Shown here piece after piece: positions 9,236 through 51,701 of a DNA stretch of 64,000 nt (the stretch's first letter is position 1; every line of letters starts with the position of its first letter). Under the pieces are notes generated by a model. That model was not told where the DNA came from and did not search any database. It worked only from the letters and a program-made list of their open reading frames with translations. Made by a program: the position numbers and the translations under genes. The stretch comes from an uncultured Eubacteriales bacterium (GTDB taxonomy: Bacteria; Bacillota_I; Bacilli_A; RF39; UBA660), in NCBI GenBank assembly GCA_963545265.1, contig CAUUHY010000001.1:21918-85917 (forward strand). Reading direction: 5' to 3'.

Positions 9236-9547
9236 TTGCTAATTGTAAAAGGAGATAAAGTTTTAAAATATATAATTTATACAGAATCAAAATGTTCAAA
9301 ACTTAACTTAGAATCTTTAAAATTAATCTATAAAAATAATTATTCTAATATTAAAGGTATAAAATATGTTATAGAGTATGATGATTTAAAACAAATTTTA
9401 AAAATATATTTAGATATAGATTTTACAAAGGTTGATTTGGATGAATTAACAAGTAAAAGAATATTATTAACTAAGGAGGTAGAATATCTATCTTTATCTT
9501 ATGTTGAAAATTTATTGTTAAAAGAAGGTTATAAAAAAGAAAGATAA
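9236..9547 (+). pseudogene. N-terminally truncated paralog of the downstream DUF1307/YehR-like lipoprotein (no signal peptide, no ATG start)
   Basis: Aligns over its whole length with residues ~45-155 of the 9614-10063 product (GIKYVIEYDD vs GIKYSFEYTD; DIDFTKVDLDEL vs DIDYTKANYREL; GYKKER vs GYKKAK); only a TTG start and an AAAGGAG that lies inside the frame. Confidence 0.45.
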
Positions 9548-9613
9548 TTTTTATCTTAATTTTAGTGTTTACATCACCATGTTTAAATTGTTATAATGAT
9601 GATAGGAGGAATT

Positions 9614-10063
9614 ATGAAAAAATTATATTTAGGATTAGTTTTATTAATTGCATTTTCATTAACAGCATGTTTAGGAGCAAAATCTTATACTTATAAATTA
9701 AAAAATTCTAAAACAGAATCTACAGTAGTTTTAACAGCTAAAGGTAATAAATTAGTTAAATATACAACAAATACAACTGTAGATTATTCAAAAGACATAA
9801 CAGCAGCTAAATATACAATAGAACAAGCAAGAGCAGCATTAAAAAAATCTTTTGATAGTTTATATAATGTAAATGGTATAAAATATTCTTTTGAATATAC
9901 TGATAGTAAAATATTAAAATTAAAAGTAGATATTGATTATACAAAAGCTAACTATAGAGAACTAGCTAAAAGAGGATTAATCGATAGAGCAGATGCTAAA
10001 TACATTGATTTTAAAGCAACTGAAAAGAATTTATTATCAAGTGGATATAAAAAAGCGAAATAA
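9614..10063 (+). CDS. DUF1307 (YehR-like) family lipoprotein
   Basis: RBS AGGAGG; lipoprotein signal MKKLYLGLVLLIAFSLTAC; family resemblance (TAKGNKLVKYT, DIDYTK). Confidence 0.65.
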   Translation: MKKLYLGLVLLIAFSLTACLGAKSYTYKLKNSKTESTVVLTAKGNKLVKYTTNTTVDYSKDITAAKYTIEQARAALKKSFDSLYNVNGIKYSFEYTDSKILKLKVDIDYTKANYRELAKRGLIDRADAKYIDFKATEKNLLSSGYKKAK

Positions 10064-10088
10064 AAATATCTCTATTTTAGAGATATTT

Positions 10089-10997
10089 TTATTTTTCTTT
10101 AATTCCTTGATATGTGTTTCTTCTTTTTAATTCTTTATCTATTTCGTTTAATACGATAAATTTTTTGTGTGTCCAACTAGGTTCTATTGTAAGTTCTTTG
10201 TTTGGATCTCCAGTCAATCTATAAAGAACAATATCTTTGTTTAAAAGTTCTATTTGATCACAAACGATATCTACAAATTCATTTAAAGTTAAAATATGAA
10301 ATGGATTTTCTAAATATTCTTTACTAAGTTTTGTACCTTTTTCGATAAACAACATGTGTATTTTAATACCATCAACTTCAAGTTTATTTACAAATTTTAT
10401 TGTTTCTAGCATATCTTCTTTTGTTTCATTTCTGAAACCATTAATAATATGAACAACTGTGTTTATATTTCTTTTTTTTAGTTCATTACAAACTTTAATT
10501 ATTTCGTCTAATTCTTCAAATCTGTTTAAATCTTTTCTAGTTCTTTCGTGAATTGTTTGAAGACCAAGCTCAACAGTTAAAAAAGTTTTTTTATTTAACT
10601 CTTCTAGATAATTTAAAATATCATTATCTATTGCATCAGCTCTAGTAGAAATATCTATTCCAACAACATCTTTCATATTTAAAAATATTTCAAATCTTTT
10701 TTTTAGGTTAATAACACTATCATATGTGTTAGTATTCGCTTGAAAATATGCGATATATTTAGCATCTTTCCATTTTGTTTTAACTTTTTTAACTCCTTCA
10801 TTAAATTGTTCTAATAAATTTTTTTGTTTATCTCCACCAAACATAGAAGAACCAGCTAGACAAAAAGTACAACCACCATATCCTTTTTTACCATCTATAT
10901 TAGGACAAGTAAAATTAGCATTAAGGGATATTTTAGCTATTTTAGTACCAAATTTATTTTTGTAAAATTCATCTAAACTATTATATCTTTTGTTCAT
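10089..10997 (-). CDS. TIGR01212-family radical SAM protein (YhcC/YtqA-like)
   Basis: N-terminal CPNIDGKKGYGGCTFC cysteine cluster typical of this radical SAM subfamily; 302 aa. Confidence 0.75.
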   Translation of the reverse strand: MNKRYNSLDEFYKNKFGTKIAKISLNANFTCPNIDGKKGYGGCTFCLAGSSMFGGDKQKNLLEQFNEGVKKVKTKWKDAKYIAYFQANTNTYDSVINLKKRFEIFLNMKDVVGIDISTRADAIDNDILNYLEELNKKTFLTVELGLQTIHERTRKDLNRFEELDEIIKVCNELKKRNINTVVHIINGFRNETKEDMLETIKFVNKLEVDGIKIHMLFIEKGTKLSKEYLENPFHILTLNEFVDIVCDQIELLNKDIVLYRLTGDPNKELTIEPSWTHKKFIVLNEIDKELKRRNTYQGIKEK

Positions 10998-14982: not shown

Positions 14983-17371
14983 TAAAGAATACGATTTTGG
15001 AAAAAATCAAGATAAATGGAATAAATATTGGGAAGAAAATGAAACTTTTAAAACAGATGTATGGGATTTTTCTAAACCAAAATATTATTGTTTAGATATG
15101 TTTCCATATCCATCTGGATCTGCACTTCATGTAGGTCATCCACTAGGTTATATTGCAACTGATATAATGGCTAGATATAAAAGAATGAAAGGATTTAATG
15201 TTTTACATCCGATGGGATGGGATTCTTTTGGTCTTCCTAGTGAACAATATGCAATTGATACTGGTAATAATCCAGCTGACTTTAATAAGAAAAATATTGA
15301 AATATTTAAAAATCAATTAAAAAATATAGGTTTATCTTTTGATTGGAGTAAGGAAATATCTACTAGTGATCCTAAATATTATAAATGGACACAATGGATA
15401 TTTAAAAGATTATTTGAAGCTAATTTAGCTAAGAAAACTGATATGTTAGTTAATTGGAGTGAGGACTTAGGTACTGTATTATCAAATGATGAAATAGTAG
15501 ATGGAAAAACTGAAAGAGGTGGTTATCCAGTTACTAGAAAAAATATGCCTCAATGGGTTATAGAAATTCCTAAATATGCAGAAAAATTATTAGAAGGATT
15601 AGATAGAGTTGATTTTCCTGAATCTACTAAAGAAATTCAAAGAAATTGGATAGGTAAATCAGTTGGTGCAGAAGTTGAATTTAAAGTAGATAATACTAAT
15701 CTTTCATTTACTGTATTTACTACTAGATGTGATACTCTTTTTGGTGTTACATATTGTGTTTTATCTCCAGATCATAGTTTAGTAGATTCTATAACAACTA
15801 AAGAACAAGAAGAGGAAGTAAAAAAATATAAAGAAGAAACAGCTAAGAAGAGCGATTTAGAAAGAACAGATCTTAATCACGATAAGACAGGTGTATTTAC
15901 TGGTAGTTATGCAATTAATCCAGTTAATGGTAAAAAAATACCTATTTATATAGCAGATTATGTTTTATCAACATATGCAACTGGTGCAATAATGGCAGTT
16001 CCAGCACATGATAAAAGAGATTATGAATTTGCTAAAAAATTTAATTTAGATATTATTAAAGTATTAGATGTAGATGAACAAGATATGGAAAAAGATGGAA
16101 TACATATTTCATCAGGTTTCTTAGATGGACTTAATAAAAAAGATGCAATTGATAAAATGTTAGAATATCTTGAAAAAAATAATTTAGGTAAAAAGAAAGT
16201 TAATTATAAGATGAGAGATTGGATATTCTCTCGTCAAAGATACTGGGGAGAACCAATTCCTATAGTTGAATTTGAAGATGGAAGACAAATGGCACTTCCA
16301 GATAAAGATTTACCACTAGAACTTCCTGTTTTAGAAGATTATAAACCATTTAGAGATGGAAGATCAGCACTTGCAAGAGCAACAGATTTTATAAATGTAG
16401 AAATAGATGGTCAAAAAGCAAAAAGAGAACTTTCTACAATGCCTGGAAGTGCTGGATCAAGTTGGTATTTTTTAAGATATATAGACCCACATAATGAAGA
16501 AAAATTAGCAGAAAAAGAACTACTTGATCACTGGATGCCAGTAGATTTATATGTAGGTGGACCAGAACATGCGGTAGGACACTTACTATATTCTAGAATG
16601 TGGACAAAATTTTTACACGAACAAGGTATCTTAAATGTAGATGAACCATATAAAAAATTATTTCATCAAGGTATGATGCTTGGAGCTAATGGAATAAAAA
16701 TGGGAAAAAGATATAAAGAATTTGTAGTAGATCCTAACGACATAGTTAACGAGTATGGAGCAGATGCTTTAAGACTTTATCAAATGTTTATGGGACCTTT
16801 AGAAGCATCAAAACCATGGAGTGATTCTGGAATAAATGGAGCTAAGAAATTTTTAGATAAAGTTGTAAGACTTCTTACTAGCGAAAAAATACAAGATAAA
16901 GAAAATAAAACTTTAGATAAAGTGTATAATTATACAATAAAAAAATGCGAAGAAGATTATGAAAAATTATCATTTAATACAGCAGTAGCACAAATGATGA
17001 TATTTGTTAATGAAGCAAGTAAAGAAGAAATAGTTCCACTTGAATATATAAGAGGATTTTTAAAACTATTAAATCCAATATGTCCTTATTTAACAGAAGA
17101 ATTTTATCAACGTTTATTTGGAAGTAATACAATAGCTTATGAAAATTTTCCAACATATGATGAAACTAAGTTAGAAGATGATAAAAAAACTATAGCAGTG
17201 CAAGTAAATGGAAAATTAAGATCAACAGTAGAAATTACAAGTGAAGAAACAGAAGAAGATATTTTAAAAAAAGTACTAGAAGATACAAAAATAAAAACTT
17301 ATACAGATGATAAAACCATTGTTAAAAAGATATATATTAAAGATAAAATAGTTAATATAGTTGTAAAATAA
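14975..17371 (+). CDS. leuS: Leucyl-tRNA synthetase
   Basis: HIGH-like HVGHPLGY and KMSKS-equivalent KMGKR motifs; ~800 aa; RBS GAGGAG before ATG 14975 (the ORF track's upstream start at 14954 is less likely). Confidence 0.95.
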   Translation: MINKEYDFGKNQDKWNKYWEENETFKTDVWDFSKPKYYCLDMFPYPSGSALHVGHPLGYIATDIMARYKRMKGFNVLHPMGWDSFGLPSEQYAIDTGNNPADFNKKNIEIFKNQLKNIGLSFDWSKEISTSDPKYYKWTQWIFKRLFEANLAKKTDMLVNWSEDLGTVLSNDEIVDGKTERGGYPVTRKNMPQWVIEIPKYAEKLLEGLDRVDFPESTKEIQRNWIGKSVGAEVEFKVDNTNLSFTVFTTRCDTLFGVTYCVLSPDHSLVDSITTKEQEEEVKKYKEETAKKSDLERTDLNHDKTGVFTGSYAINPVNGKKIPIYIADYVLSTYATGAIMAVPAHDKRDYEFAKKFNLDIIKVLDVDEQDMEKDGIHISSGFLDGLNKKDAIDKMLEYLEKNNLGKKKVNYKMRDWIFSRQRYWGEPIPIVEFEDGRQMALPDKDLPLELPVLEDYKPFRDGRSALARATDFINVEIDGQKAKRELSTMPGSAGSSWYFLRYIDPHNEEKLAEKELLDHWMPVDLYVGGPEHAVGHLLYSRMWTKFLHEQGILNVDEPYKKLFHQGMMLGANGIKMGKRYKEFVVDPNDIVNEYGADALRLYQMFMGPLEASKPWSDSGINGAKKFLDKVVRLLTSEKIQDKENKTLDKVYNYTIKKCEEDYEKLSFNTAVAQMMIFVNEASKEEIVPLEYIRGFLKLLNPICPYLTEEFYQRLFGSNTIAYENFPTYDETKLEDDKKTIAVQVNGKLRSTVEITSEETEEDILKKVLEDTKIKTYTDDKTIVKKIYIKDKIVNIVVK

Positions 17372-17408
17372 TAATAAAATTATTATTATATTAGTAGAGG
17401 TATGTATA

Positions 17409-18101
17409 ATGGAAGAAGAAAAGAAAAAGAAAACAACAAATAATAAGAAACAAGATGTGAAGAAAAATGCTAAATCAACTTCTAAAAAAGTTGATTCAAA
17501 AAAGAAAGTTTCTAAAAAATCAAATATTAGAAATAATAATGTAAAAACTGAAAAGAAAATTACAGAAGTTAAAAAAGAAGTTAAACCTAAGGTTGAAGAA
17601 AAAGTTGAAGTTAAAAAAGATTCAATAAAAGAAAAAGCTTTAGAAGATACAACAATTTTAGCTGTAGCAAAACCAGTTAAAAATAAAGAAATATCAGCAA
17701 GTAATGAATCAACTAGATCTAAAATTTTAATTGCTTCACTTTCTATATTAGTATTTATTATGATAATTTTACTTATTTATAAGTTTAATGATAGGTTAAA
17801 AGAAGATCCTAGATATAAAGATAGTATTAGTGAATATTGTGAACAATTAGCTAAAAAAGAAGAAAAACAACAAAGAGAAAATGTTGCTAAAGAAGTAAGT
17901 TCTAATGATTTGGATAAAATTAAATTTAAAAAAGTAACATGTGAATACAATGAACCAAGTAAATTATCAAAAGAAGAATTAAAAAATAATGATGCAGGTT
18001 ATAGTTATGTTATATCTATAAAGAAAGATGCTAAAGTAGCATATACTAAAGAAGTATTAGTAATAAAGTCAAATGATAAGTGGACAGTAGAAGAAAAATA
18101 A
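17409..18101 (+). CDS. Hypothetical bitopic membrane protein with a lysine-rich N-terminal cytoplasmic tail
   Basis: K-rich 120-aa N-terminus, one TM (ILIASLSILVFIMIILLIY), ~100-aa extracytoplasmic domain. Confidence 0.5.
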   Translation: MEEEKKKKTTNNKKQDVKKNAKSTSKKVDSKKKVSKKSNIRNNNVKTEKKITEVKKEVKPKVEEKVEVKKDSIKEKALEDTTILAVAKPVKNKEISASNESTRSKILIASLSILVFIMIILLIYKFNDRLKEDPRYKDSISEYCEQLAKKEEKQQRENVAKEVSSNDLDKIKFKKVTCEYNEPSKLSKEELKNNDAGYSYVISIKKDAKVAYTKEVLVIKSNDKWTVEEK

Positions 18102-18124
18102 TCACAAAAGTGATTATTTTTTTA
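18100..18124 (+). terminator. Rho-independent terminator
   Basis: aatcacaaaagtgatt hairpin plus a T-run. Confidence 0.55.
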
Positions 18125-18125
18125 T

Positions 18126-18153
18126 TTGACAAATACTCTCAAAAGTTTATAAT
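18126..18153 (+). promoter_or_regulatory. Sigma-A promoter of the 18195-23763 operon
   Basis: TTGACA(18126-31)-16 nt-TATAAT(18148-53), a near-perfect consensus. Confidence 0.6.
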
Positions 18154-18166
18154 ATAAACGTATTAA

Positions 18167-18181
18167 TGCAAATAATTAGCA
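18167..18181 (+). promoter_or_regulatory. Candidate Fur-family 7-1-7 operator (TGCAAAT-A-ATTAGCA)
   Basis: Imperfect inverted repeat matching the TnnTAAT-n-ATTAnnA architecture of Fur/PerR/Zur boxes; sits between the -10 and the RBS of an operon that ends in a Fur-family gene. Confidence 0.35.
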
Positions 18182-18194
18182 TTTAGGAGGAGCT

Positions 18195-18623
18195 ATGAAA
18201 AAATTTTTAAACGCAAAAGAAATAACTTTAAAATCTTATAAAGATACTAATGATGAAAAAGGAACAGATTTACCAATCGCTGAAGGAGAAGAAGAACTAA
18301 ATTTTCATTTAGATATGAGAGGTAATCATGTTATTGATCTTGAATTAACTTTTGATGAAGAAGAAAAAAGAGAAGAAACATTAGAATTTGAAATGAATGA
18401 TGATATGTTTTTACTTTATATAGAATCATATAAATATGATAAAGACTCAGATCAATTAATTAGATATAAATCATATCAAGTAGTTGGTGATGATGAAGTT
18501 ACTATAGATATAGATGAAAATACAAGAACTATTAATTTAACATCAATAGGATATATAAATAAAGATAAAGTAGGGAACATAAAAATAAAAAGACAAAAAG
18601 AAAAAGTAAAAAGGAAAAATTAA
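18195..18623 (+). CDS. Hypothetical acidic protein (first gene of the operon)
   Basis: RBS AGGAGG; 142 aa, D/E-rich; 3-nt gap to the next gene. Confidence 0.5.
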   Translation: MKKFLNAKEITLKSYKDTNDEKGTDLPIAEGEEELNFHLDMRGNHVIDLELTFDEEEKREETLEFEMNDDMFLLYIESYKYDKDSDQLIRYKSYQVVGDDEVTIDIDENTRTINLTSIGYINKDKVGNIKIKRQKEKVKRKN

Positions 18624-18626
18624 TAT

Positions 18627-19550
18627 ATGAGAGTGTCATTTTTTGGAAAAGGTGGAAGTGGAAAAACAACGATATCTTCATCTTTTATTAGTTATTTATT
18701 AAAGAAGAAAGAAAATGTTTTAGCAATAGATGCTGATATGAATGTTCATTTGGGAAAAGTTTTTGATATGCCAATAAATATAATAAGTAAAGAAAACGAT
18801 GAAATAGCAAAAACTTTAGAACCAAATAGAAATATTCCTATAATAGGGACAACACCACCTGTTAAAAATTCTAGGTTTATAAAAGTATCTAAAGAAGATC
18901 GTTTTTTAAAAAAATATGCAACAATTAAAAATAATTTAATGTTATTAACAGTTGGTACTTATAATTTAGAAAGCGTAGGATCAGATTGTTATCATAGTAA
19001 ACTTAATACACTAGAACTTATATATCATCGTTTACTTGATACAAATAAAGATTATGTTGTTACTGATTCAACAGCAGGAATAGATAGTTTAGGTACATCT
19101 TTATTCTTTGTATCGGATATTAACGTTTTTGTTGTAGAACCAACTATGAAAGGTATATCTGTATATAAAGATTTTAATGATATAGCTAGTAAATTAGGTA
19201 TTAAGACTTATGTAATAGGAAATAAAATTACAGATAAAGAAGATGAAGAATTTTTAATTAAAAAAATAGGTAAAGAAAACATTTTAGGTTTCATTAAAAA
19301 TTCAAAAAATTTAAGAAAATATGAACAAGGTGAAAAAGAATACTTTGATGAATTTGTAAATGAAAATAAAGATGTTTATGAAAATTTAATATCTGTTATG
19401 AAAAATACACCAAGAGATTGGAAAATTTATTATGAGAGATTAAAGAATGTTTATGTAGCAGCTTGTTTAGATTGGTATTCAGAGTATTATAAAGAAGATT
19501 TAACTAAATATATAGATCAAGATTTTTCTTATGAAGAAGTAGAGGTATAA
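18627..19550 (+). CDS. CooC-like MinD/ParA-superfamily P-loop ATPase
   Basis: Deviant Walker A FFGKGGSGKTT, A' LAIDADMN, and DYVVTDSTAGIDSLG resembling the CooC D-VV-D-EAG-EHL motif; 307 aa. Confidence 0.65.
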   Translation: MRVSFFGKGGSGKTTISSSFISYLLKKKENVLAIDADMNVHLGKVFDMPINIISKENDEIAKTLEPNRNIPIIGTTPPVKNSRFIKVSKEDRFLKKYATIKNNLMLLTVGTYNLESVGSDCYHSKLNTLELIYHRLLDTNKDYVVTDSTAGIDSLGTSLFFVSDINVFVVEPTMKGISVYKDFNDIASKLGIKTYVIGNKITDKEDEEFLIKKIGKENILGFIKNSKNLRKYEQGEKEYFDEFVNENKDVYENLISVMKNTPRDWKIYYERLKNVYVAACLDWYSEYYKEDLTKYIDQDFSYEEVEV

Positions 19551-20969
19551 ATGATAAGCTTTACAGCAAAAAAAGATGATAAAACAAAAAGATTTATAGA
19601 ACAAATAAAAAATTTAAAAACTATGATAAATAGTTTTTCTTCACCATGTAATATAATTTTCCCTGATAGTTTAGATAACAATGTTAAAACTATAGAAAAT
19701 GTATTAAAAAAGCACAATTTACTATATAAAATCTTTTATGCACATAAATGTAACAAATCTATGTCTATAGTAAAAGAAGCTGCTTTATTAAATCTTAACT
19801 GTGATGTAGCAAATGTTTATGAATTAAGAAGAGCTTTAATATCAGGGTTTTCTGGAGATAGAATAGAAGCAACTGGTCCAAAAAATAAAGAATTTTTAAT
19901 TTTAGCAATAGAACAAAATGTTACGATAAATGTTGATAACTTAGATGAATTAAAAGCTATTTTAGATTTAAATAAAAAGATAAATAAGAAAAAAGTAAAT
20001 ATATTATTAAGAATATCTTCATTTTTTAAAAATTATGCAATTGAAAAATTAACTAGATTTGGAATGGGATATGAAGATATATTAGAAGCTTTGAGTATAA
20101 TTAAAAAAAATTCATCGTTAAATTTATTAGGTTTTTCTTTTCATGTAGATACAGTAAAAAATAGTGAAAAAGTAATAGCTTTTACAAATGCTTTAAAATT
20201 AACAACTAAAGCTTTAGAAATGGGACTTAGTCCTAAAGTAATAGATATAGGTGGAGGATTTAAAGTAAATTATATTGAAAGTGAAGATGAATGGAATAGT
20301 TCTATAACGGAGTTAAAAGAATCGTTTTTAACTTTTGATTCATTAACATGGAATAATGAAACTTTTGGTATGAGTATAAAAAATAACACTTTAACAGGTA
20401 CTTTAAATGTTTATAATTTTTATAGTAAAGAAACATTAGCTGAAGATTTGGACTTATTTTTGACTACTAAAATAGAAGAGTATCAAAATCAAACAGTAGC
20501 AGATATTTTACTTGAAAATATGATTACTTTATATATAGAACCAGGTAAATCTTTACTTGATAATTTAGGTATATCTGTAGCTAAAGTTAACTTTGTAAAA
20601 ACTATTAAAAATGATACTGTTATCGGATTAGATATGAGAAGAAACGATTTAGTGATGGTTGATAGCGAAGTATTTTTAGATCCTTTAGTTGTAAGTGAAG
20701 AAAAAGAATTAGATGAAAAAAAGGGAGTATATTTTGTAGGTAACCTTTGTTTAGAAGGTGACTTAATTTATAAAAGAAAAATATTTATAAAACAGATACC
20801 TAAAGAAGGAGATTTAGTTATTTTCTTTAATACAGCGGGATACTTTATGGACTTTAACTATTTAGATCAAGATTTTTCTGTTACTAATAAAGTAGCAGCT
20901 ATAGAAAAAGATAATACTTTTGTTTTTTATAAAGATGAATTATATAATCCAATAATTAGTAAGGAGTAA
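19551..20969 (+). CDS. Fold-type III PLP-dependent decarboxylase (Orn/DAP/Arg decarboxylase family)
   Basis: PLP-lysine motif YAHKCN (cf. FAVKCN), glycine loop DIGGGFK, C-terminal active-site GNLCLEGD (cf. GPxCDSxD); 472 aa; start abuts the previous stop. Confidence 0.7.
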   Translation: MISFTAKKDDKTKRFIEQIKNLKTMINSFSSPCNIIFPDSLDNNVKTIENVLKKHNLLYKIFYAHKCNKSMSIVKEAALLNLNCDVANVYELRRALISGFSGDRIEATGPKNKEFLILAIEQNVTINVDNLDELKAILDLNKKINKKKVNILLRISSFFKNYAIEKLTRFGMGYEDILEALSIIKKNSSLNLLGFSFHVDTVKNSEKVIAFTNALKLTTKALEMGLSPKVIDIGGGFKVNYIESEDEWNSSITELKESFLTFDSLTWNNETFGMSIKNNTLTGTLNVYNFYSKETLAEDLDLFLTTKIEEYQNQTVADILLENMITLYIEPGKSLLDNLGISVAKVNFVKTIKNDTVIGLDMRRNDLVMVDSEVFLDPLVVSEEKELDEKKGVYFVGNLCLEGDLIYKRKIFIKQIPKEGDLVIFFNTAGYFMDFNYLDQDFSVTNKVAAIEKDNTFVFYKDELYNPIISKE

Positions 20970-20971
20970 AA

Positions 20972-22291
20972 ATGGTATATAAAAGTATAATAGATTTAAT
21001 TGGTAATACACCACTTGTAGAAATATCAAAAGATATTCATAAAATTAAAAATGTTAATTTGTATGCTAAATTAGAAATTTATAATCCGTTTGGATCGGTA
21101 AAAGATAGAACAGCTTACGGTATGTTAAAAGACCATTTAGAAGAAATAAAAGAGAAAAATTTAACAGTAATAGAATCTTCTAGTGGTAATACAGCAAAAG
21201 CTTTAAGTGTTTTATGTAATATTAATGATATAGATTTTAAAACTGTAACAAATAGAATAAAAATACCAGAAGTTAAAGATATACTTAAAACTTTTGGAGC
21301 TAATATATTAGAACTTCCTGGTTTATCAGAATGTCCTGATCCAAGTGATCCAAATGATTCATTAAAAGTAATATCTAAAATAATGGCAGCAAGTCCAGGT
21401 AAATATTTTTATCCAGACCAATATAGTAATCCAAATAATCCTTTGATGCACTACCATACTACTGGAAAAGAAATATGGGATGATTTAGGAAAAGTTGATT
21501 ATTTCTTTGGAACTTTAGGTACGGCAGGAAGTAGTGGAGGAATAGTAAAATATATTAAAGAAAAAAATTCTAATCTAAAAGCTTATGGTATAGTAGGTGA
21601 AAAAGGAGATTTAATTCCTGGAATTAGAAATAAAGATGAAATGCTTGAAGTAGGAAACTTTGATTTGAGTGTATACGATGGAATAGTTCAAGTTAGTACT
21701 AGTGAAGCGTTAGATTCTATGTTTACTTTAGTTAAAAAATGTGGAATATTAGGCGGACCTACTAGTGGAGCATGTTTGGCTGGAACACTTAAATATTTAA
21801 GTAAAATAGAAGATTCCTTAACAGAAGAAATAAATGTAGTGATAGTAGTTTGTGATAGAATTGAACACTATATGTCTTATATTAAGAAAAGAAGACCAGA
21901 ACTTTTCTACGAAGAGAAAAAAGAAAATATTTATAATTTAACAGAAGAAGATAAACAATATTTAAAACAAGTTAAAGTAGAAGATCTTGATGAATTTATT
22001 AATAAAGAAAAACCTTTAATCATAGATTTAAGAGGTAATTTAGCATATAGAAATTCTCATGTAAAAGGATCTATGAACATTTTAGAATCAATATTTTTAG
22101 ATGTTATAGATAATGCTATAGTTTTTGATAAAGATAAGGTAGTTTTACTTATATGTCCTACTGGTAATAAGTCTGATAAACTTTCAATGTTATTAAATAA
22201 AAAATTAATGAATGTATATAGTTTAGAGGGTGGTATGGTAGAACTTGTAAATAATGAATATCCATTAGAAAGAATTTCAAATCATGAATAG
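20972..22291 (+). CDS. CysK/CysM-like PLP beta-replacement enzyme fused to a C-terminal rhodanese domain
   Basis: KLEIYNPFGSVKDRTAYGM and SSGNTAKAL are hallmark CysK/CBS motifs; the last ~110 aa (LIIDLRGNLAYRNSHVKGSMNI...LICPTGNKSDK) form a rhodanese fold with a Cys in the active-site loop. Confidence 0.75.
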   Translation: MVYKSIIDLIGNTPLVEISKDIHKIKNVNLYAKLEIYNPFGSVKDRTAYGMLKDHLEEIKEKNLTVIESSSGNTAKALSVLCNINDIDFKTVTNRIKIPEVKDILKTFGANILELPGLSECPDPSDPNDSLKVISKIMAASPGKYFYPDQYSNPNNPLMHYHTTGKEIWDDLGKVDYFFGTLGTAGSSGGIVKYIKEKNSNLKAYGIVGEKGDLIPGIRNKDEMLEVGNFDLSVYDGIVQVSTSEALDSMFTLVKKCGILGGPTSGACLAGTLKYLSKIEDSLTEEINVVIVVCDRIEHYMSYIKKRRPELFYEEKKENIYNLTEEDKQYLKQVKVEDLDEFINKEKPLIIDLRGNLAYRNSHVKGSMNILESIFLDVIDNAIVFDKDKVVLLICPTGNKSDKLSMLLNKKLMNVYSLEGGMVELVNNEYPLERISNHE

Positions 22292-23393
22292 AGAAGATTT
22301 TTCATACTTTGAAAACAATAGAGAAACTATATATTTTGATAATGCAGCAACAAGTTTAAAACCTAAAGTTGTAGTTAATAAGATTATCGAATATTATAAT
22401 AAAAATTCTTATAATATTAATAGAGGTATATATAAGGGTGCTAATTTAATATCAAAAGAAGTAGAAGAAACTAAAGAAATAGTTAAAAAATTTATAAATG
22501 CAGAAAGTAAAGAAAACATCTTTTTTACAAGTGGTGCAACAGCTTCTTCAAAAATATTAAGTGAAATATTTGATAGTATTTTAACAGAAGAAGATGAAAT
22601 ATTGCTTTCAAAAAATGATCATATATCTACAATAAAACCTTTTATTGATAAGTTTTCTAATATAAAAGAAATATTAATAGATAAAAATATAGATTATGAC
22701 GAAGAAGATTTATATAAAAAATTAAATAAAAATACTAAATTAGTAATTCTTACGTATATTCATAATTTATATGGTTACGATATGGGACTTAGTTATATAA
22801 TTCCTAAGATTAGAGAAAAAACAGATGCTTTTATTATAGTTGATGCATCTCAAGCAGTTGGACATTTAAACGTTGATGTAAAAAAATTAGATGTAGATGC
22901 ATTATATTTTTCAGGGCATAAAATGTTTAGTGAAACAGGTGTAGGCGTTTTATATATGAACGATAGATTAAAGTCTTTATCAAACTATGATTTTTCTTTA
23001 GGTACACCTAATATTAGTGGAATACTTTCATTAAAAGAAGCTATTAAATATATTAATAATCTAGGTATTTTAAATATAGAAAAATATGTTAGAGATTTAA
23101 CTGCATATTTAAAAGATAGATTAGAAGATATAGAAGAAGTAGAAGATGATATGGGAATTATGAGATTAAGTTGTAGACTTGGATATGGAATTATAAGTTT
23201 TAAAATAAAAAACTTAGATGAAAGAGAAGTTGCAAGTGTTTTATCTAATTATAATATCTATGTTAGAAGTGATAACCAGTGTAACTACAACAAAGAAAGT
23301 TATTTAAGAGTAAGCTTACATTTTTATAATACAAAAGAAGAAATAGATAGATTTATTAATATATTAAAAAATATTGTTAAAGAAAGAATATGA
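22284..23393 (+). CDS. Class V aminotransferase, SufS/NifS-like cysteine desulfurase
   Basis: FSGHKMFSETGVGVLY matches SufS SGHKMxGPTGxGxLY; candidate catalytic Cys in VRSDNQCNY; 369 aa; 8-nt overlap with the upstream gene. Confidence 0.7.
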   Translation: MNREDFSYFENNRETIYFDNAATSLKPKVVVNKIIEYYNKNSYNINRGIYKGANLISKEVEETKEIVKKFINAESKENIFFTSGATASSKILSEIFDSILTEEDEILLSKNDHISTIKPFIDKFSNIKEILIDKNIDYDEEDLYKKLNKNTKLVILTYIHNLYGYDMGLSYIIPKIREKTDAFIIVDASQAVGHLNVDVKKLDVDALYFSGHKMFSETGVGVLYMNDRLKSLSNYDFSLGTPNISGILSLKEAIKYINNLGILNIEKYVRDLTAYLKDRLEDIEEVEDDMGIMRLSCRLGYGIISFKIKNLDEREVASVLSNYNIYVRSDNQCNYNKESYLRVSLHFYNTKEEIDRFINILKNIVKERI

Positions 23394-23763
23394 TATGAAA
23401 GATACTAAACAAAGAAATTATATTTTAGATGTATTAAATAATAATAATAAGAGTTTATATGTAGAAGAAATATGTGATTTAGTAAACGAAAAGTCAGATT
23501 CTAAAGTAGCATTATCTACAATTTATAGAAATGTTAATAAACTTTTAGAAAAAGAAATGATTATAAAAACTTTTGATAAGTCTGGAAAAGCTATGTATAT
23601 AAAAAGTCATAAACATAGTCATGAATTTAAGTGTAGTAAGTGTCATAAGATAATAACTTTAGATATTTGTCCTTATACTATAATTGAAGAAAATTTGAAA
23701 AATAATGGATTAACTGTAGAAGAAACTAAAATAAAAGTAAGATGTAGTTCTTGTAAAGAATAG
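23374..23763 (+). CDS. Fur-family metalloregulator (Fur/Zur/PerR/Nur-like)
   Basis: 129 aa; winged-helix N-terminus, HxH plus two CxxC pairs (CSKCHK...CSSCKE); overlaps the desulfurase gene end. Confidence 0.7.
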   Translation: MLKKEYDMKDTKQRNYILDVLNNNNKSLYVEEICDLVNEKSDSKVALSTIYRNVNKLLEKEMIIKTFDKSGKAMYIKSHKHSHEFKCSKCHKIITLDICPYTIIEENLKNNGLTVEETKIKVRCSSCKE

Positions 23764-23816
23764 CATTACTTTTATTTTTATTATATAATCTATATGTTTA
23801 AAGAAAGAGTGTTAAT

Positions 23817-25436
23817 ATGGAAAAAAGAGATATTTTTATAGGTGGAGCTTGGCCTTATGCAAATTATTATTTACATGTAGGACATCTAGCAGCTCTACTT
23901 CCAGGAGATATAATTGCTAAGTATTATAGAGAATGTAAAGATAATGTTATTTATGTATCGGGATCTGATTGTCATGGTACTCCAATAACTGAAAGAGCTA
24001 GAAAAGAAAATACTACTCCTTTAAAAATAGCTACATTATATCATAATGAATTTGTAAAAACTTTTAAAAATTTAGGATTTGAATATGATTTATATACTGC
24101 TACTATGTCAGAAGATCATAAAAAATATGTAGAGGAATTTTTTAAAAAAATAAAAGAAAATGGATATCTTTTTGAAAAAGAAGAGGATGAAGATTATTGT
24201 ATTCATTGTCAAAAATTCTTATCGGATAGAGAAATACTAGGAACTTGTCCACATTGTGGTGGAACAAGTACAGGAGATCAATGTGAAGTATGTGGTACAT
24301 CTTTAGATAGTAAAGATTTACTTGATAAACATTGTAAAATTTGTTCTAATCCTACAACTCTTAGAAAAAATAAACATTTATATTTTAAACTTCCTGAATT
24401 TAAAGAAGAATTACAAAATTTAATAAATAAAAATAAAGATAAATGGAGAAAAAACGCTATTGGTGAAGCTCAAAAATATATAGATATGGGGCTTGTTAAT
24501 AGAGCAGCTACAAGACAACTTGATTGGGGAGTAAATGTACCAGTAGAAGGATATATAGATAAAAGAATATATGTATGGCTTGAAGCAGTATTAGGATATT
24601 TATCAGCAGGAGAAAAGGTAGCAAAAGAAAAAAATATAGATTTTGATTTATTTATGGATGATAATAATAAAAATTTAATTACTTATTATGTACATGGTAA
24701 AGATAATATTCCTTTTCATACAACAATATATCCACCTTTAATATTAGCTAGTAAAAAGAATTATAGATTACCAGATTATATAGTTTCATCAGCATATGTT
24801 AATTTAAATAATGATAAGATGAGTAAGTCAAAGGGTAATTTAATAACTGCTAATGAATTATTAGAAAAATTTGATAGTGATACACTTAGATTTTATTTTT
24901 CTTATAAAGGTCCTGAAACTAACGATATGAATTGTTCAATTGAAGATATAATTCAAACACATAATAAGTTTTTAGTAGGTATGTTAGGTAATTTTATCAA
25001 TAGAAATTTATCTTTTATAAATAAAAAATTTGATGGAGTTATAAAAGAAAGTACTGTAGATGAAGAAACAGTAAATATTACAAAAGAAGTTTATAAATCT
25101 GTAGCAGAAAGCTTTGAAAAAGCAGAAATAAGAAATGCAGTACAAAAAATCGTAGACTATATATCATATGCTAATAAATATTATGATAGTAATGAACCTT
25201 GGTTAAGAGTAAAAGATAATATAGATGAATTTAATAAGATAACATATACATGTATATATATTATGGCTAATCTGGCTAATTTAATTTATCCTATATTACC
25301 AAAAGCATCAAAGAAGATAAAAGAAATGTTAAGTTTTGAAGATTTAAAATGGGAAGAAGAAAAACTATCTGGTGATTATCATATAAAAAATTTAGATATT
25401 TTATATAATAGAATAGAAGAAAAAATACTTAAATAA
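23817..25436 (+). CDS. metG: Methionyl-tRNA synthetase (short form)
   Basis: HVGHLAALLPGD (HIGH-like), zinc knuckles CPHCGG/CEVCG, KMSKS motif KMSKSKGN; 539 aa. Confidence 0.9.
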   Translation: MEKRDIFIGGAWPYANYYLHVGHLAALLPGDIIAKYYRECKDNVIYVSGSDCHGTPITERARKENTTPLKIATLYHNEFVKTFKNLGFEYDLYTATMSEDHKKYVEEFFKKIKENGYLFEKEEDEDYCIHCQKFLSDREILGTCPHCGGTSTGDQCEVCGTSLDSKDLLDKHCKICSNPTTLRKNKHLYFKLPEFKEELQNLINKNKDKWRKNAIGEAQKYIDMGLVNRAATRQLDWGVNVPVEGYIDKRIYVWLEAVLGYLSAGEKVAKEKNIDFDLFMDDNNKNLITYYVHGKDNIPFHTTIYPPLILASKKNYRLPDYIVSSAYVNLNNDKMSKSKGNLITANELLEKFDSDTLRFYFSYKGPETNDMNCSIEDIIQTHNKFLVGMLGNFINRNLSFINKKFDGVIKESTVDEETVNITKEVYKSVAESFEKAEIRNAVQKIVDYISYANKYYDSNEPWLRVKDNIDEFNKITYTCIYIMANLANLIYPILPKASKKIKEMLSFEDLKWEEEKLSGDYHIKNLDILYNRIEEKILK

Positions 25437-37804: not shown

Positions 37805-39646
37805 ATGAGTGGTGATTTTAAACTAAAGATGAGTTTAAAAAATCCTAGTCAAAAGATTAGGATAAGTAACTCTAATAAAGTAACAGTTTATCAAAATAAT
37901 GTATGTGTAGAAGATTTCTATATTTCAAAAGAAAAATTTAGTTCTATTGATTTGATAATGTCTTATGTATTAGAAGAAAATTCCAGTAGTGAAGAATATG
38001 TAATGTACAATAATAAGAAAGAAACTAATAAAGAAAAAATAGAAGTAATTTCTAGTATTCTAAAAGAGGTTAAACTTAAAGAATTTTTAGATATTAGTAG
38101 AAATTTAACAGTATCTGAAGATGAAAACACGGATATTATACCAATTGAAATATTAAAGATGGTTGAATATTCTGATTTTGGTTTTTGTTTAACTACGCGT
38201 AATAAAACATATAGATTTTTAGGTAAAAACAAAATTCTTTTAAAAATAGAAGAATTGTTTTCTAAATCTTTGTTACCACTTTTTTCTTGTAATAGAAAAA
38301 TATTTGTAGATTATAATTATAATAAAAATATATATCAAGTAATTAAAGATAATGAAATAATATATGAAAATACCGATATTAAAAATGTATTTGATTATTT
38401 AGATGAGTATAAAATAGAGAATAAAAAAATAACAGAATATGAGGATTTAATCTGTATAGATTGTGAAAGTAGGGGTATGTTGAACGAATTATCAAAAGAA
38501 TGCAATTTTCCTTTGAATTTATATGAAGGATTTAATGATACATTATTTAATTTTAATAAAGATTTAAATAATACTAGTAAAGTATATATAAGTCATGTTC
38601 CATATGTATCAAATAATAATAATGCTTTATTAGTTATTCCAAAAATAGAAGAATATACTATAGATTTAATTAATGATATAGAATTTAAAATATCTAACTT
38701 AACTTTAAAGGTAAAATCTTTAAATAGTAAAGAGATATCTTTGAAAGCTATAACAAAATCAAATGTTTTAATAGATAAAAAAGTTATAAATAAAAATGAT
38801 GTTTTAACTTTTAAAATGAATGAAGAACATGTATTTAATTTGGATTCTAAAGATGGAATAGAAACATGGAACTTTGTGTTTAAAAGGGGAACTTTTAAAA
38901 AAGAATATAGAAGAATACACTTTGAAAAGATAAAACAAATATTAGAAAAGAAAGATAATTTTAAAGATCTTACAATAGTTGAAAAATATGAAACTTATAA
39001 ATCGATTTTACTATTTTTATATTTTATTAATCAAAAACAAGATGAAGTAAAATTAGATGAATTATACAGTTTGCTAGACGGTAATTTATATGAAGAATTT
39101 TTAACGGATTATAATATTAAAGAAGTAGAAAAAAATACGACATTTAAAAGCTTTAATGATAAAAAAATATTTGTAGAAAAAGTTAGTTTTGTAGATACTT
39201 TAGTTAAATATAATTGGTTATCTTATCCAAGATATATATTTTCAACTATTTCGTATTTTAATAAAGATAAAATAATGAGAGACTTCGATATAATGTTTAA
39301 TCAAATGATAAGTAAAACTTCATTTAAAGATTACTTAATAAAACTATTTGAACAAAATAGTTTATATCAAAATGTGTCTAAAAATTTTGAATATATGTTA
39401 AATTTGTTATCAAATATGTATTATGTTGATATAAAAAATGGAGAAGATAAAAAATATTATATTGAAAAGCTAGTTATCAATAATACAAAAGAAGATGATT
39501 TAAGTTATAGCATTTCGGTTCTTGTAAGTGCTTATATTAGAGATGAAAAAGTAAGAGAAAAATATTTAGATGAATTACAAGAAAAATATAGAAAAGGAGA
39601 CCTGAAAGAACCACTTTATATAGAAAAATTGGAGGTGAATGATTAG
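37805..39646 (+). CDS. Large hypothetical cytoplasmic protein (613 aa), no recognisable domain
   Basis: RBS AAAAGGGG; long ORF; no TM or signal peptide; 8-nt overlap with the next ORF. Confidence 0.55.
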   Translation: MSGDFKLKMSLKNPSQKIRISNSNKVTVYQNNVCVEDFYISKEKFSSIDLIMSYVLEENSSSEEYVMYNNKKETNKEKIEVISSILKEVKLKEFLDISRNLTVSEDENTDIIPIEILKMVEYSDFGFCLTTRNKTYRFLGKNKILLKIEELFSKSLLPLFSCNRKIFVDYNYNKNIYQVIKDNEIIYENTDIKNVFDYLDEYKIENKKITEYEDLICIDCESRGMLNELSKECNFPLNLYEGFNDTLFNFNKDLNNTSKVYISHVPYVSNNNNALLVIPKIEEYTIDLINDIEFKISNLTLKVKSLNSKEISLKAITKSNVLIDKKVINKNDVLTFKMNEEHVFNLDSKDGIETWNFVFKRGTFKKEYRRIHFEKIKQILEKKDNFKDLTIVEKYETYKSILLFLYFINQKQDEVKLDELYSLLDGNLYEEFLTDYNIKEVEKNTTFKSFNDKKIFVEKVSFVDTLVKYNWLSYPRYIFSTISYFNKDKIMRDFDIMFNQMISKTSFKDYLIKLFEQNSLYQNVSKNFEYMLNLLSNMYYVDIKNGEDKKYYIEKLVINNTKEDDLSYSISVLVSAYIRDEKVREKYLDELQEKYRKGDLKEPLYIEKLEVND

Positions 39647-48070: not shown

Positions 48071-48089
48071 TAAAAAGGGGGAATAATTT

Positions 48090-51000: not shown

Positions 51001-51701
51001 GGAAGAGTGAAACTAAAGCACTTTACAAGAAGACATGGAGTAATGATTTAAAAGAAGCTTTCTCTAAATATGTTAATACTATTGGAAAAGGTGAATACCT
51101 TAGAAAATATAAAGTTGAAGAAGATAAATTGAGAAAAGAAAATCAAAGTAGTCAATCAGGAGAAAATCAAGTAGTAGTTCCAGAAGAACAAAATAACAAT
51201 AACAATCAAAATAATAATCAAAGCAGTTCACAAACACAAACAGGAGAAAATTCAGTGGTAACTGATGAAACTCAAGATTTAGGTCAAGGTTCTAAAGTAA
51301 TAACTGATGTTGAAGAATTGCAAGGTCAAACAAATAATACAGAAATAAATCAAAATGTAACTCCTTCAGAACAAAATAACAACAACAATCAATCTAATGA
51401 AGAAGTAGTTAATGAAATTTTACCAGATGAAAGTTTAAATTTAGGTCAAGGTGAACAACCAGTACAACCAAATACTACTGTTGAAAATGAAGTAGCACCA
51501 ATAGTAGAAGAAAACAATCAATCTGTTGAAAGACAAAACACTAATCAAAATGAAGGAAGTGAAATAACAAGAATAGATAATCGTGCTATTCAACCAGAAG
51601 AAATACCAGAAATAGATGAAACAACTGATGCTAATGAAATAGAACCAGTTAGTTTAGAAAATAAAGAAGCAAAAGGAAAGGTTTTAACAAGACGTATATA
51701 G
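48090..51701 (+). CDS. Bitopic membrane protein (1203 aa): acidic cytoplasmic N-domain, one TM, large extracytoplasmic region with Ser-rich and Q/N-rich low-complexity tracts
   Basis: RBS AGGGGG; TM LIAAGRIGVGAGLLAAGAALGLGA at aa ~230; region aa ~330-470 is paralogous to the next ORF. Confidence 0.6.
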   Translation: MENLNNITIFGKFRKDKTLDYTSDKVLVNYEDGKNLHIVDGINEVLKNLLINRNLIKENDVITQEKLNEAIELGYIKVVDIEELDHNFYKNIVEREGRDELTLEETEEIKRNVRSLELKQNERESSRLDDDFEEIDLSRDNQTDNEESNANREQIRRILREEGYFDEEKEDVVEKDSEKDSEKAAEEDVEEMKDEEQENSSKIIPIDDYYDDDEEEYEEEADEEKRLIAAGRIGVGAGLLAAGAALGLGAKHLIDANAKPNTQNAKNVQDEITTVSENEQKAMDESISSVNQEYENNNNNTNNNANNNPVTNTVEEDFSSDVVINDSVKKEIKSNFEILNFDLANATEVQKDFLNSTAGLITKFHEQTHKSNNFRLENDNEHYLDLTLDEAMSLNLLLNDYTQDEINQIFGSHQFNSEKIQNSAKSAYTKLATYYMNATEKSGLSDIIKDEKKKELFDKMEDSVLRFNQNATVENATEVHRQAYYNYITSGASNEYANDDLTAFFATSPLMGFVMTNSTTSYQVENFLISRLNDSEELNKYGEAYLRSGTHFVALAKEGNSYVVQELDAFGNCINRAESETTIMSLINDKALLKSMIRKSDNLGQMVANANEKYLADELAKDQKIIESRKFVEYILSGNNDYRYALFNALGANFDNYNEFLKECFATDNVREAELLLSSLSMNVSIDGLNSHLGKLGEVEISEISQTEKGKNIIAIYNKLISRIETKTLTLNQVANKIDFSKLGGIYGINDNQAVGYLVNVRRDILTKQFLNLKTSSNSECSSNSSSEKRSSSSSSSNSSSTKTTSSSNSNSQDNSNQKVVERRVETTEREEVSTKEETHTERKEVTKEELTEKERKQAERKEKRLEASNFVYNIAARASQDVNEYMNSNEYKSDSTTTTYVNKYNDQDLNNESLINQARLIRAWNDGSLSEISTSNSQIIAKKNEDAQNFIDSLSDDEIDLLKSRYGNDWKSETKALYKKTWSNDLKEAFSKYVNTIGKGEYLRKYKVEEDKLRKENQSSQSGENQVVVPEEQNNNNNQNNNQSSSQTQTGENSVVTDETQDLGQGSKVITDVEELQGQTNNTEINQNVTPSEQNNNNNQSNEEVVNEILPDESLNLGQGEQPVQPNTTVENEVAPIVEENNQSVERQNTNQNEGSEITRIDNRAIQPEEIPEIDETTDANEIEPVSLENKEAKGKVLTRRI

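Follow-up and report, generated by a model that had tools for sequence, protein, structure and literature searches.

What does a cell make, or repair, with three pyridoxal 5'-phosphate (PLP) enzymes, a rhodanese domain, a CooC-like ATPase and a Fur-family metalloregulator encoded in one tight gene cluster? The question is raised by positions 18195-23763 of a stretch of 64,000 nucleotides, here called the window, from contig CAUUHY010000001.1 of an uncultured Eubacteriales bacterium (assembly GCA_963545265.1). An earlier note on this DNA had described the cluster as a metal-regulated sulfur/PLP pathway and knew of no characterised pathway of the same composition. The answer proposed here, tentatively and with slightly less than even confidence, is that the operon is a metal-starvation-induced route to a small sulfur-containing amine for metal acquisition, buffering or delivery.

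Conservation of the gene block

The six open reading frames (ORFs) are co-directional, on the plus strand, and lie exactly where the earlier note had placed them. In order they encode an acidic protein (ORF 1, 18195-18623, 142 amino acids), a CooC-like ATPase of the MinD/ParA class (ORF 2, 18627-19550, 307 amino acids), a fold-type III PLP decarboxylase (ORF 3, 19551-20969, 472 amino acids), a CysM-like domain fused to a rhodanese (ORF 4, 20972-22291, 439 amino acids), a SufS-like desulfurase (ORF 5, 22284-23393, 369 amino acids) and a Fur-family metalloregulator (ORF 6, 23395-23763 from an ATG, giving 122 amino acids, or 23374-23763 from a TTG). The ATG at 23395 is the more likely start of the last gene, since it is the choice of the gene callers in identical metagenome contigs. 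The first four genes are separated by 3, 0 and 2 nucleotides, the largest gap thus being 3 nucleotides; then follow an overlap of 8 nucleotides and a gap of 1 nucleotide, which becomes an overlap of 20 nucleotides with the TTG start. Genes 1, 3 and 4 have strong ribosome-binding sites and the remaining genes weak ones, a mixture consistent with translational coupling. That the six genes are co-transcribed as a single operon is suggested by their tight spacing and overlaps, by the one strong promoter and by the hairpin upstream of it.

An exhaustive search for homologues of the fusion among 1.84 billion representatives gave about 35 clusters of full-length PALP::rhodanese proteins. A contig scan with the single fusion sequence returned two close relatives only, and further loci were found through a search with an ATPase profile. 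The block ATPase-decarboxylase-fusion(-desulfurase), usually in this order, is conserved in about 20 divergent lineages, and in all related loci that have upstream sequence the decarboxylase gene lies directly 5' of the fusion gene. The surroundings of this module are unrelated between loci: a clade at 61% identity, with the order Fur-ATPase-decarboxylase-fusion-SufS, is found in wholly different genomic surroundings. It was on conserved co-occurrence across genomes that the earlier note had staked its reading, and the co-occurrence is there, with the desulfurase as an optional member in some lineages.

The order ATPase-decarboxylase-fusion-SufS is found in Alkaliphilus metalliredigens QYMF (L094; CP000724.1, about 1,737,211-1,742,189), Natranaerovirga pectinivora (L097), a Patescibacteria metagenome-assembled genome (MAG; L098), a Bacilli MAG (L100) and a member of the Melainabacteria (L102); further module loci (L096, L099, L101) belong to other uncultured lineages. 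At L029, L030, L033 and L038 the module genes are open only under genetic code 25, in which TGA is recoded, and the proteins of L020 match Nanohaloarchaea. On contigs high in G+C or Bacteroidota-like (L022/24 and L039; the taxonomic labels are guesses), decarboxylase and fusion occur without the CooC-like ATPase.

Some copies of the module are irregular. At L019 (2980-10648, from a human oral metagenome) an insert of about 2 kb with transposase-like ORFs parts the ATPase from the decarboxylase, and decarboxylase and desulfurase are each split into two ORFs, so that the locus looks like a decaying copy. At L040 (5784-9080 of a 376-kb contig) the homologues of ATPase, decarboxylase and fusion are short fragments under codes 11 and 25 alike, so that the module there is either pseudogenised or read with yet another code. 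In L020 the usual place of the desulfurase is taken by a truncated, class-I aminoacyl-tRNA-synthetase-like protein of 324 amino acids (9523-10497) with weak similarity to class-I lysyl-tRNA synthetase (LysRS-I) and GluQRS.

Protein families and catalytic residues

Pfam finds a P-loop domain of CbiA/MinD type, Orn_Arg_deC_N and Orn_Arg_deC_C, PALP plus Rhodanese, Aminotran_5 and FUR in the operon proteins, which are the domains that had been predicted from the letters, and every motif quoted with that prediction is present; the acidic first protein has no Pfam match. With the curated NCBIfam models, all operon proteins fall far under the cut-off of any named family. The best model is lysA (TIGR01048) for the decarboxylase (126.6 bits, cut-off 297.9), cysKM for the fusion (184.1 bits, cut-off 344.15; cysM gives 179.6 against 394.2 and SbnA 159 against 349.95), sufS for the desulfurase (261.5 bits, cut-off 475.1) and minD for the ATPase (37 bits, cut-off 202), and the Fur models give the regulator at most 42 bits against a cut-off of 200. 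From scores so far under the cut-offs follows that the operon proteins are not the housekeeping enzymes: canonical LysA, CysK/CysM, SufS and MinD/ParA are ruled out, no named Fur subfamily is supported by its score, and the canonical LysA, CysK, IscS and ParA genes that the earlier note had named as identities speaking against it were not recovered.

The decarboxylase (PF02784, E 3.3e-27, 95.9 bits) has as its nearest relatives the diaminopimelate (DAP) decarboxylases, with an E value of merely 3e-15. K66, H198xD200, the GGG motif (G234-236), E330-P-G332 and C400xExD404 are invariant in an alignment of ten sequences, in which Y431 of a GAY-type motif is also conserved. The protein has EPGK, at a position that varies within the family, and no equivalent of RPxLY; in structures of DAP decarboxylases, the arginine of EPGR and RPxLY bind the distal L-centre carboxylate of DAP. 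By its score and by these residues, the decarboxylase is not LysA.

The fusion consists of a PALP domain (E 2.3e-51) and a C-terminal rhodanese domain (PF00581, 51.5 bits, E 1.5e-13). Its nearest solved structures are those of CysM, with which, in an alignment to Salmonella CysM, it has the IPGIR loop in common. Among 31 proteins of the fusion family, at 34-61% identity, the PLP lysine Lys44 (SVKDR) and the rhodanese cysteine Cys395 (CPTGNKS) are invariant, conservation extends to the SSGNT, GTxGT (phosphate) and IPGIR loops, and Cys121, in a family-specific insert SECPDPxDP, is nearly invariant. The rhodanese active-site loop CPTGNKS fits the six-residue CxxGxx[ST] type.

The desulfurase (Aminotran_5, E 1.5e-78) aligns with SufS of Staphylococcus aureus in two blocks, with a break at 228/236 against 248/279, and in the window clade it is about 30 residues shorter than SufS after the PLP lysine, which leaves its beta-hairpin region incomplete. 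That lysine (SxHK) and the catalytic cysteine (RxGxHC loop) are conserved in 11 orthologues, and no suf genes are adjacent to the desulfurase of the window. The three PLP enzymes and the rhodanese have intact catalytic residues, in support of the earlier note, and the conservation of such residues across the families makes ATPase, decarboxylase, fusion and desulfurase look active.

The closest relatives of the CysM-like domain that have no rhodanese, at 45-46% identity, are fused to a DAP-epimerase domain (PALP plus DAP_epimerase, 546-555 amino acids). Their genes (L034:8001-9641 and L035:6999-8666) have only housekeeping genes around them, on Bacteroidota-like contigs, and the proteins may both make and epimerise an amino acid of DAP or lanthionine type.

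Among solved structures, the ATPase has a single significant full-length relative, CooC1 (3kje, E 8.4e-15; residues 1-228 against residues 1-220 of CooC1). Like CooC, the nickel-insertion ATPase for CO dehydrogenase, it has the deviant Walker A motif GKGGxGKTT, in the form GKGGSGKTT, and a cysteine at the metal position of the dimer interface. Unlike CooC, it has Cys-x-His instead of Cys-x-Cys (GSDCYH, C121-Y-H123, opposite GSQCYC of CooC) and a C-terminal extension of about 80 residues, and no cooS/acsA genes lie nearby. GKGGxGK[ST]T and C121-Y-H123 are invariant in all seven orthologues, which also keep a TPP-containing motif (mostly TTPP) and the extension, ending in IDxEFSY. CO dehydrogenase genes are found neither in the window neighbourhood nor in any related locus examined. 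The kinship with CooC claimed in the earlier note is thus borne out by the structural relative, but extends neither to the Cys-x-Cys motif nor to the company of CO dehydrogenase. A genuine CooC role in CO dehydrogenase maturation is ruled out by the C-x-H motif and by the lack of a CO dehydrogenase gene in any locus; on sequence grounds, the protein is a putative metallochaperone in a distinct CooC-like subfamily with Cys-x-His.

At L095 (10001-15462), on an Obscuribacterales contig, none of the PLP enzymes accompanies the ATPase; its neighbours are two COG0523/CobW genes, a gene for a Sel1-repeat protein and one for a paralogue of ribosomal protein S18, and an imperfect palindrome, TTAATGATAACTGATTCTCATTAA, lies upstream. 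ATPase, COG0523 genes and S18 paralogue together make up what we take to be a typical zinc-starvation set; tabulated Zur regulons serve as a comparison for the L095 genes (PMC6103462). Some lineages have two paralogous CooC-like ATPases (L096:8934-11689; L102:18694-19677), and the second ATPase of L096 carries a fused phosphatase domain of the HAD family (562 amino acids).

The first protein is, as the earlier note had said, acidic: it has a pI of 4.79, 34 aspartate plus glutamate residues and no cysteine, and it is predicted to be a beta-sandwich. Its 75 homologues all belong to one clade, with identities of at least 55-57%; in addition, the Bacilli MAG encodes an equally acidic homologue (31% identical, E 4.8e-16), also as the first gene behind the same operator. 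The protein is now seen as a lineage-restricted accessory component of two clades only. A ThiS/MoaD-type sulfur carrier is ruled out by the lack of cysteine and of a C-terminal Gly-Gly and by the beta-sandwich prediction. Three tests failed to establish homology to a divergent acidic 144-amino-acid protein encoded in the L010 clade: BLASTP gave E 0.27, 3 of 500 shuffles did equally well, and hhalign gave a probability of 2.6%.

The Fur-family protein (PF01475, 58 bits against a cut-off of 23.1, E 1.3e-15) has two CxxC pairs (CSKC and CSSC) and an HxHxH stretch. Its nearest solved structures are Fur of Helicobacter pylori and of Campylobacter jejuni (E about 6e-7), and Nur is absent from its 13 PDB matches. 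The Fur-like proteins linked to the module in different loci are diverse among themselves.

The shared operator and the metal

Upstream of the operon, at 18092-18123 on the plus strand, lies a hairpin with a perfect 14-bp stem followed by a run of T (free energy -13 kcal/mol, z -6.2; none of 200 shuffles equally stable). It is probably an intrinsic terminator of the gene before it, which would insulate the operon; the terminator scan passed it over solely owing to its scarce G-C pairs. The DNA has a G+C content of 23% and belongs to a gut lineage that recurs on many metagenome contigs. It is followed at 18126-18153, also on the plus strand, by a promoter of sigma-70/sigma-A type, TTGACA-16-TATAAT, which matches the consensus in 12 of 12 positions, is the sole such match in a scan of 17000-25000, and is kept in the relatives L003 and L008. 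What the earlier note had described as a terminator and a near-consensus promoter has in this way become firmer on both counts.

Just past the -10 box, at 18165-18183 of the plus strand, is a 9-1-9 palindrome with one mismatch, AATGCAAAT-A-ATTAGCATT, with the core TGCAA-N5-TAGCA. It occurs once in the whole window, is conserved in relatives, and is the presumed operator of the Fur-family protein encoded at the end of the operon. The palindrome belongs to a class, TGCAA-N5-T(T/A)GCA, typically ATGCAACTAAGTTGCAT. Members of this class stand directly 5' of the gene that opens the module in nine lineages, namely the window clade, Alkaliphilus, the Patescibacteria MAG and those of L026/28, L029/30/38, L032, L099, L100 and L101. 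The Fur-type box noticed earlier in the promoter is therefore one member of a class that recurs across phyla. In the first 1.1 Mb of related-locus DNA there are 21 matches to the class, with about 1.9 expected, and 20 of the 21 stand at a module promoter; L100 and L101 add two, for a total of 23. The match outside a module promoter is in L026, where a second promoter of the form TTGACA-operator-TATAAT drives a DsrE-like gene. At L101 the operator is 5' of three cobW genes that run into the module. In several loci the operator lies between -35 and -10; the position just past -10 is shared by the window and L100.

The Nur box of the nickel sensor of Streptomyces coelicolor is tTGCaa-N5-ttGCAA (PMC2691836). 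With Nur the module thus shares the core TGCAA-N5-TTGCA and a Fur-family repressor placed over metal-acquisition genes; unlike the Nur box, the operator of the module has central bases that are also palindromic (n-1-n type).

Genes for metal handling accompany the module in many loci. Fur-family genes adjoin it in the window and at L010, L026/28, L033, L100 and L102, and a NikR gene is present at L020. Genes for COG0523/CobW GTPases are found with it at L020, L032, L033, L039, L099 and L101, and in many cases their products are long proteins that have His-rich stretches and, in the metal motif, a CxxC variant. A ZIP transporter is encoded at L026/28, the Alkaliphilus copy is flanked by MntR, an ABC importer of Mn/Zn type (MntABC-like) and a CbiMQO-like system, and other transporters near module loci are YibE/F, ArsP-type permeases and a BCCT carrier. 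In L028 a sulfur carrier of the DsrE/SaoD family, scoring over its curated cut-off, is encoded 3' of the module, and according to a preprint the non-SAO branch of DsrE usually neighbours zinc-uptake genes (10.1101/2022.07.06.499078). The DsrE/SaoD-family gene is intact in L028 (10500-10883) and apparently frameshifted in L026 (10442-10900). A link to selenium, raised by matches to SaoD and to a CobW-related selenoprotein model, was pursued and gave only this neighbourhood of non-SAO DsrE and zinc uptake.

Taken singly, neither the sequence of the regulator nor the operator fixed the metal that is sensed and handled. Zinc is somewhat favoured, with a probability a little above one half, because of the COG0523 genes, the S18 paralogue, the ZIP transporter and the association of the DsrE branch. 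Nickel is the main alternative, and an unlikely one, supported by the CooC ancestry of the ATPase, the Nur-like box, NikR and the CbiMQO-like genes.

Some further signals lie at the ends of the operon. The -10 box lies within reach of a second palindrome, GTTTATA-A-TATAAAC, a perfect 7-1-7 that overlaps it at 18145-18159 and is present also in L008; this could be the site of a second regulator or a chance occurrence in AT-rich DNA. In the 53 nucleotides between the Fur-family gene and metG (23764-23816) there is no convincing terminator structure (z -0.88) and there is a TATAAT at about 23783-23788, so that metG may receive partial read-through from the operon or have a promoter of its own.

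A possible pathway and its rivals

To see how the module could work, consider a cell in which the metal co-repressor has become scarce. By Fur-family precedent, the regulator would then leave the operator beside the -10 box and the strong promoter would fire. The SufS-like enzyme would move sulfur from cysteine to its active-site persulfide and from there to Cys395 of the rhodanese, the residues for both being present, and in some lineages the DsrE-like carrier may join this relay. The CysM-like domain would convert O-phosphoserine to a PLP-bound aminoacrylate and add the rhodanese sulfur, by analogy with CysM of Mycobacterium tuberculosis and with SbnA, to give a cysteine-type beta-substituted alanine; this may remain tethered as a disulfide that the conserved Cys121 resolves. 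The fold-III decarboxylase would then strip the alpha-carboxylate to leave a 2-aminoethyl sulfur compound, either cysteamine or a thialysine-type S-aminoethyl thioether, much as SbnH and AcsE decarboxylate their substrates to aminoethyl-type products. Lineage-specific enzymes would N- or S-methylate, acetylate or oxidise the amine, and the CooC-like ATPase, holding metal at the Cys-x-His site of its dimer interface, would with the COG0523 GTPases move metal between the ligand and its clients. In its full form the proposal is that of a new low-molecular-weight thiol or thioether amine (a sulfur zincophore or nickelophore, or an intracellular metal-transfer ligand), made, by a route without precedent, through addition of the desulfurase-fed rhodanese persulfide to O-phosphoserine on one polypeptide and decarboxylation of the S-protected cysteine unit, with the Cys-x-His CooC-like protein as a new class of metallochaperone, under one ancient Fur-family operator common to Firmicutes and several uncultured small-genome lineages including Patescibacteria. 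So specified, the proposal is possible but, on balance, doubtful.

Several accompanying genes bear on these steps. Small ParB-fold proteins encoded in L020, L028 and L096 match the N-terminal half of SerK, an ADP-dependent serine kinase, with E values of 1e-16 to 1e-18, and ParB-fold proteins at module loci also match the SbnI model (E 1e-6). The presence of SerK/SbnI-like proteins in three lineages, together with the conserved arginine of the IPGIR loop, points to O-phosphoserine as the substrate. Methyltransferases are encoded near the module at L021, L096, L098 and L102, flavin-dependent (FAD) amine oxidases at L096 and L102, an acetyltransferase-like protein at L102 and a cystathionine-synthase-like enzyme at L096, and tailoring enzymes of such types would suit an amine product. 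The L010 module has a desulfoferrodoxin, a glutathione peroxidase and a thioredoxin-reductase-like gene as neighbours.

The closest parallel is SbnI/SbnA/SbnH in the staphyloferrin B pathway of Staphylococcus aureus, where a ParB-fold serine kinase provides O-phosphoserine for a CysK-fold beta-replacement, a fold-III decarboxylase converts the 2-amino-2-carboxyethyl unit to an aminoethyl unit, and the whole is under a Fur-family repressor. The SbnA model (159 bits) and the SbnI model (E 1e-6) match the corresponding proteins, under their equivalog cut-offs, and the serine-kinase-like proteins strengthen an analogy that the earlier note had drawn for SbnA and SbnH only. Unlike the Sbn set, the module probably uses sulfur brought by rhodanese and desulfurase as nucleophile instead of glutamate, it adds CooC-like and COG0523 nucleoside triphosphatases (NTPases), and SbnB and the siderophore synthetases of the NIS type (SbnC/E/F; IucA/IucC), the latter already described as absent in the earlier note, are present neither in the window nor in any related locus. 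With the CysM-CysO-MoeZ system of M. tuberculosis the module shares a CysM-type enzyme with the IPGIR arginine loop, O-phosphoserine, and protein-bound sulfur loaded by a rhodanese domain, and with the SerK-CysK route of Thermococcus a serine kinase that provides the substrate. Unlike CysM-CysO-MoeZ, it is without a ThiS/MoaD-like carrier, an E1-like adenylase or a JAMM protease, its rhodanese and synthase form one polypeptide, and the decarboxylase is an obligatory partner. A third parallel is the operon for the zincophore [S,S]-ethylenediamine disuccinate (EDDS) in Amycolatopsis japonicum, a zinc-repressed chelator pathway (PMC7586795). The likeness lies in the logic of a zinc-repressed small-molecule chelator; unlike the product proposed for the module, EDDS contains no sulfur, and its cluster is confined to actinomycetes. 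The EDDS (aes) cluster includes CysK/SbnA-like and DAP-decarboxylase-like enzymes and is not known to have a desulfurase, a rhodanese or NTPases.

A number of observations weigh against the sulfur-amine proposal. It uses the sulfur of cysteine to rebuild a cysteine skeleton, which is apparently futile unless decarboxylation of free cysteine is thereby avoided or the acceptor is not derived from serine; a rationale may be that free cysteine forms thiazolidines and so makes PLP enzymes inactive, a loss that an S-protected, tethered unit would avoid. The desulfurase is absent in some lineages (L020, L039, L101) and hence optional. The NTPases have no place among the biosynthetic steps, there is no dedicated exporter or importer in the window, and the transporters elsewhere are mixed (ZIP, YibE/F, ArsP-type permease, BCCT, ABC). 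The palindrome of the L010 clade is a different one (AAACGAT-T-ATCATTT), and the evidence on the metal is mixed: the operator core is identical to that of the Nur box, but the window regulator does not look, by sequence, like a Nur orthologue. The presence of the module in members of the candidate phyla radiation (CPR) and DPANN with minimal metabolism could mean that it does an essential housekeeping job and makes no ligand for secretion. Finally, no product of the module is known, and the one proposed is inferred.

The last of these genomic arguments fits an explanation in which the module builds or repairs a metal-thiolate or metal-sulfide site and yields no free small-molecule end product. 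Desulfurase, rhodanese and DsrE-like relay would then bring the sulfur, and the CooC-like and COG0523 NTPases the metal, to a client encoded elsewhere, the PLP enzymes serving to regenerate or consume an amino-acid carrier. CooC is the sole significant full-length structural relative of the ATPase, whose metal position is kept as an invariant C-Y-H, COG0523 proteins with His-rich stretches co-occur, the ATPase is found without the enzymes in the Zur-regulon-like cluster of L095, and the module is retained in minimal CPR and DPANN genomes. Such trafficking is nevertheless an unlikely explanation, for decarboxylases are not known to play a part in metallocentre assembly, no client enzyme is conserved nearby across the roughly 20 lineages, no scaffold of SufB, IscU or NifU type is present, and the methyltransferases, amine oxidases and acetyltransferase of particular lineages are of kinds usual in the tailoring of small molecules. 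Another view takes the closeness of the fusion to CysM, with the IPGIR arginine retained, at face value: the module would be a back-up for sulfide-independent cysteine synthesis from O-phosphoserine and protein-bound sulfur, as in M. tuberculosis, induced by metal or oxidative stress, and its decarboxylase would meet an unrelated need for polyamines or lysine. The SerK-like kinases, as in the SerK-CysK route of Thermococcus, and the desulfoferrodoxin, glutathione peroxidase and thioredoxin-reductase-like neighbours at L010 agree with this, but a sulfur donor enzyme that uses up cysteine gives zero net synthesis, no gene is linked to that of the fusion as tightly as the decarboxylase gene, which adjoins it wherever this could be tested, the decarboxylase lacks the DAP-binding residues, and NTPases and metal regulators are left unexplained. 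A back-up role of this kind is accordingly judged quite improbable.

A thioether diamino acid has also been considered, that is, a lanthionine- or thialysine-type analogue of DAP or lysine made by the CysM-like domain and converted by the DAP-decarboxylase-like enzyme to S-(2-aminoethyl)cysteine or bis(2-aminoethyl)sulfide. The product could replace lysine or a cell-wall component, act as an antimetabolite or serve as an N,S,N chelator. This reading would account for lysA as the best family match of the decarboxylase, for the DAP-epimerase domains fused to the nearest rhodanese-less relatives of the CysM-like domain at 45-46% identity, and for the class-I LysRS-like fragment 3' of the fusion in L020. 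It is very doubtful, however, given that the distal-carboxylate residues of DAP decarboxylases are not conserved, that a thioether made from cysteine requires neither a desulfurase nor a rhodanese, and that the LysRS-like match is weak and occurs once. Chance adjacency of housekeeping genes (ParA/MinD, LysA, CysK, SufS, Fur) without joint function carries next to no weight. Each protein does come from a very large, ubiquitous superfamily, and the flanking genes leuS and metG are themselves housekeeping genes, but all five proteins lie far under the housekeeping-family cut-offs, ATPase and fusion carry family-specific invariant motifs, and the block is kept across phyla in differing surroundings behind a shared operator; these conservation data effectively refute it.

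A description of the cluster was found nowhere in the full-text literature searched, which included reviews and papers on COG0523, metallostasis and Zur regulons, with subscription-only literature outside the scope; the opinion in the earlier note that no characterised pathway has this composition agrees with that result. The constituent families are known, and it is their combination, the synthase-rhodanese fusion, the Cys-x-His CooC-like subfamily and the cross-phylum operator that appear to be undescribed. If the sulfur-amine proposal is true, the module is a widespread, uncharacterised arm of microbial metal homeostasis, in hosts that range from human gut and oral bacteria and cultured anaerobes (A. 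metalliredigens, N. pectinivora) to ultra-small CPR and DPANN organisms, of whose metal economy, to our knowledge, essentially nothing is known. The known metallophores would then gain a sulfur-based chemotype, the CooC-type ATPases would gain a subclass without a tie to CO dehydrogenase, a Fur-family regulon spanning phyla could be mapped through its operator, and there would be a chemically sensible route to cysteamine-type compounds in which PLP enzymes are spared free cysteine. The two cultured hosts open every step to testing.

The operon is flanked by leuS and metG. The gene immediately 5' of it (17409-18101) encodes a lysine-rich protein of 230 amino acids with one hydrophobic segment and no family match, in a position that is conserved in close relatives. 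Many genes of the window are orphans: in the regions 53279-60412, 45554-51701 and 37805-39646 there are large ORFs of 838, 1203 and 613 amino acids with no Pfam match, and among the same regions is the gene for a surface-type protein of 2377 amino acids with Rib and bacterial TSP3 repeats.

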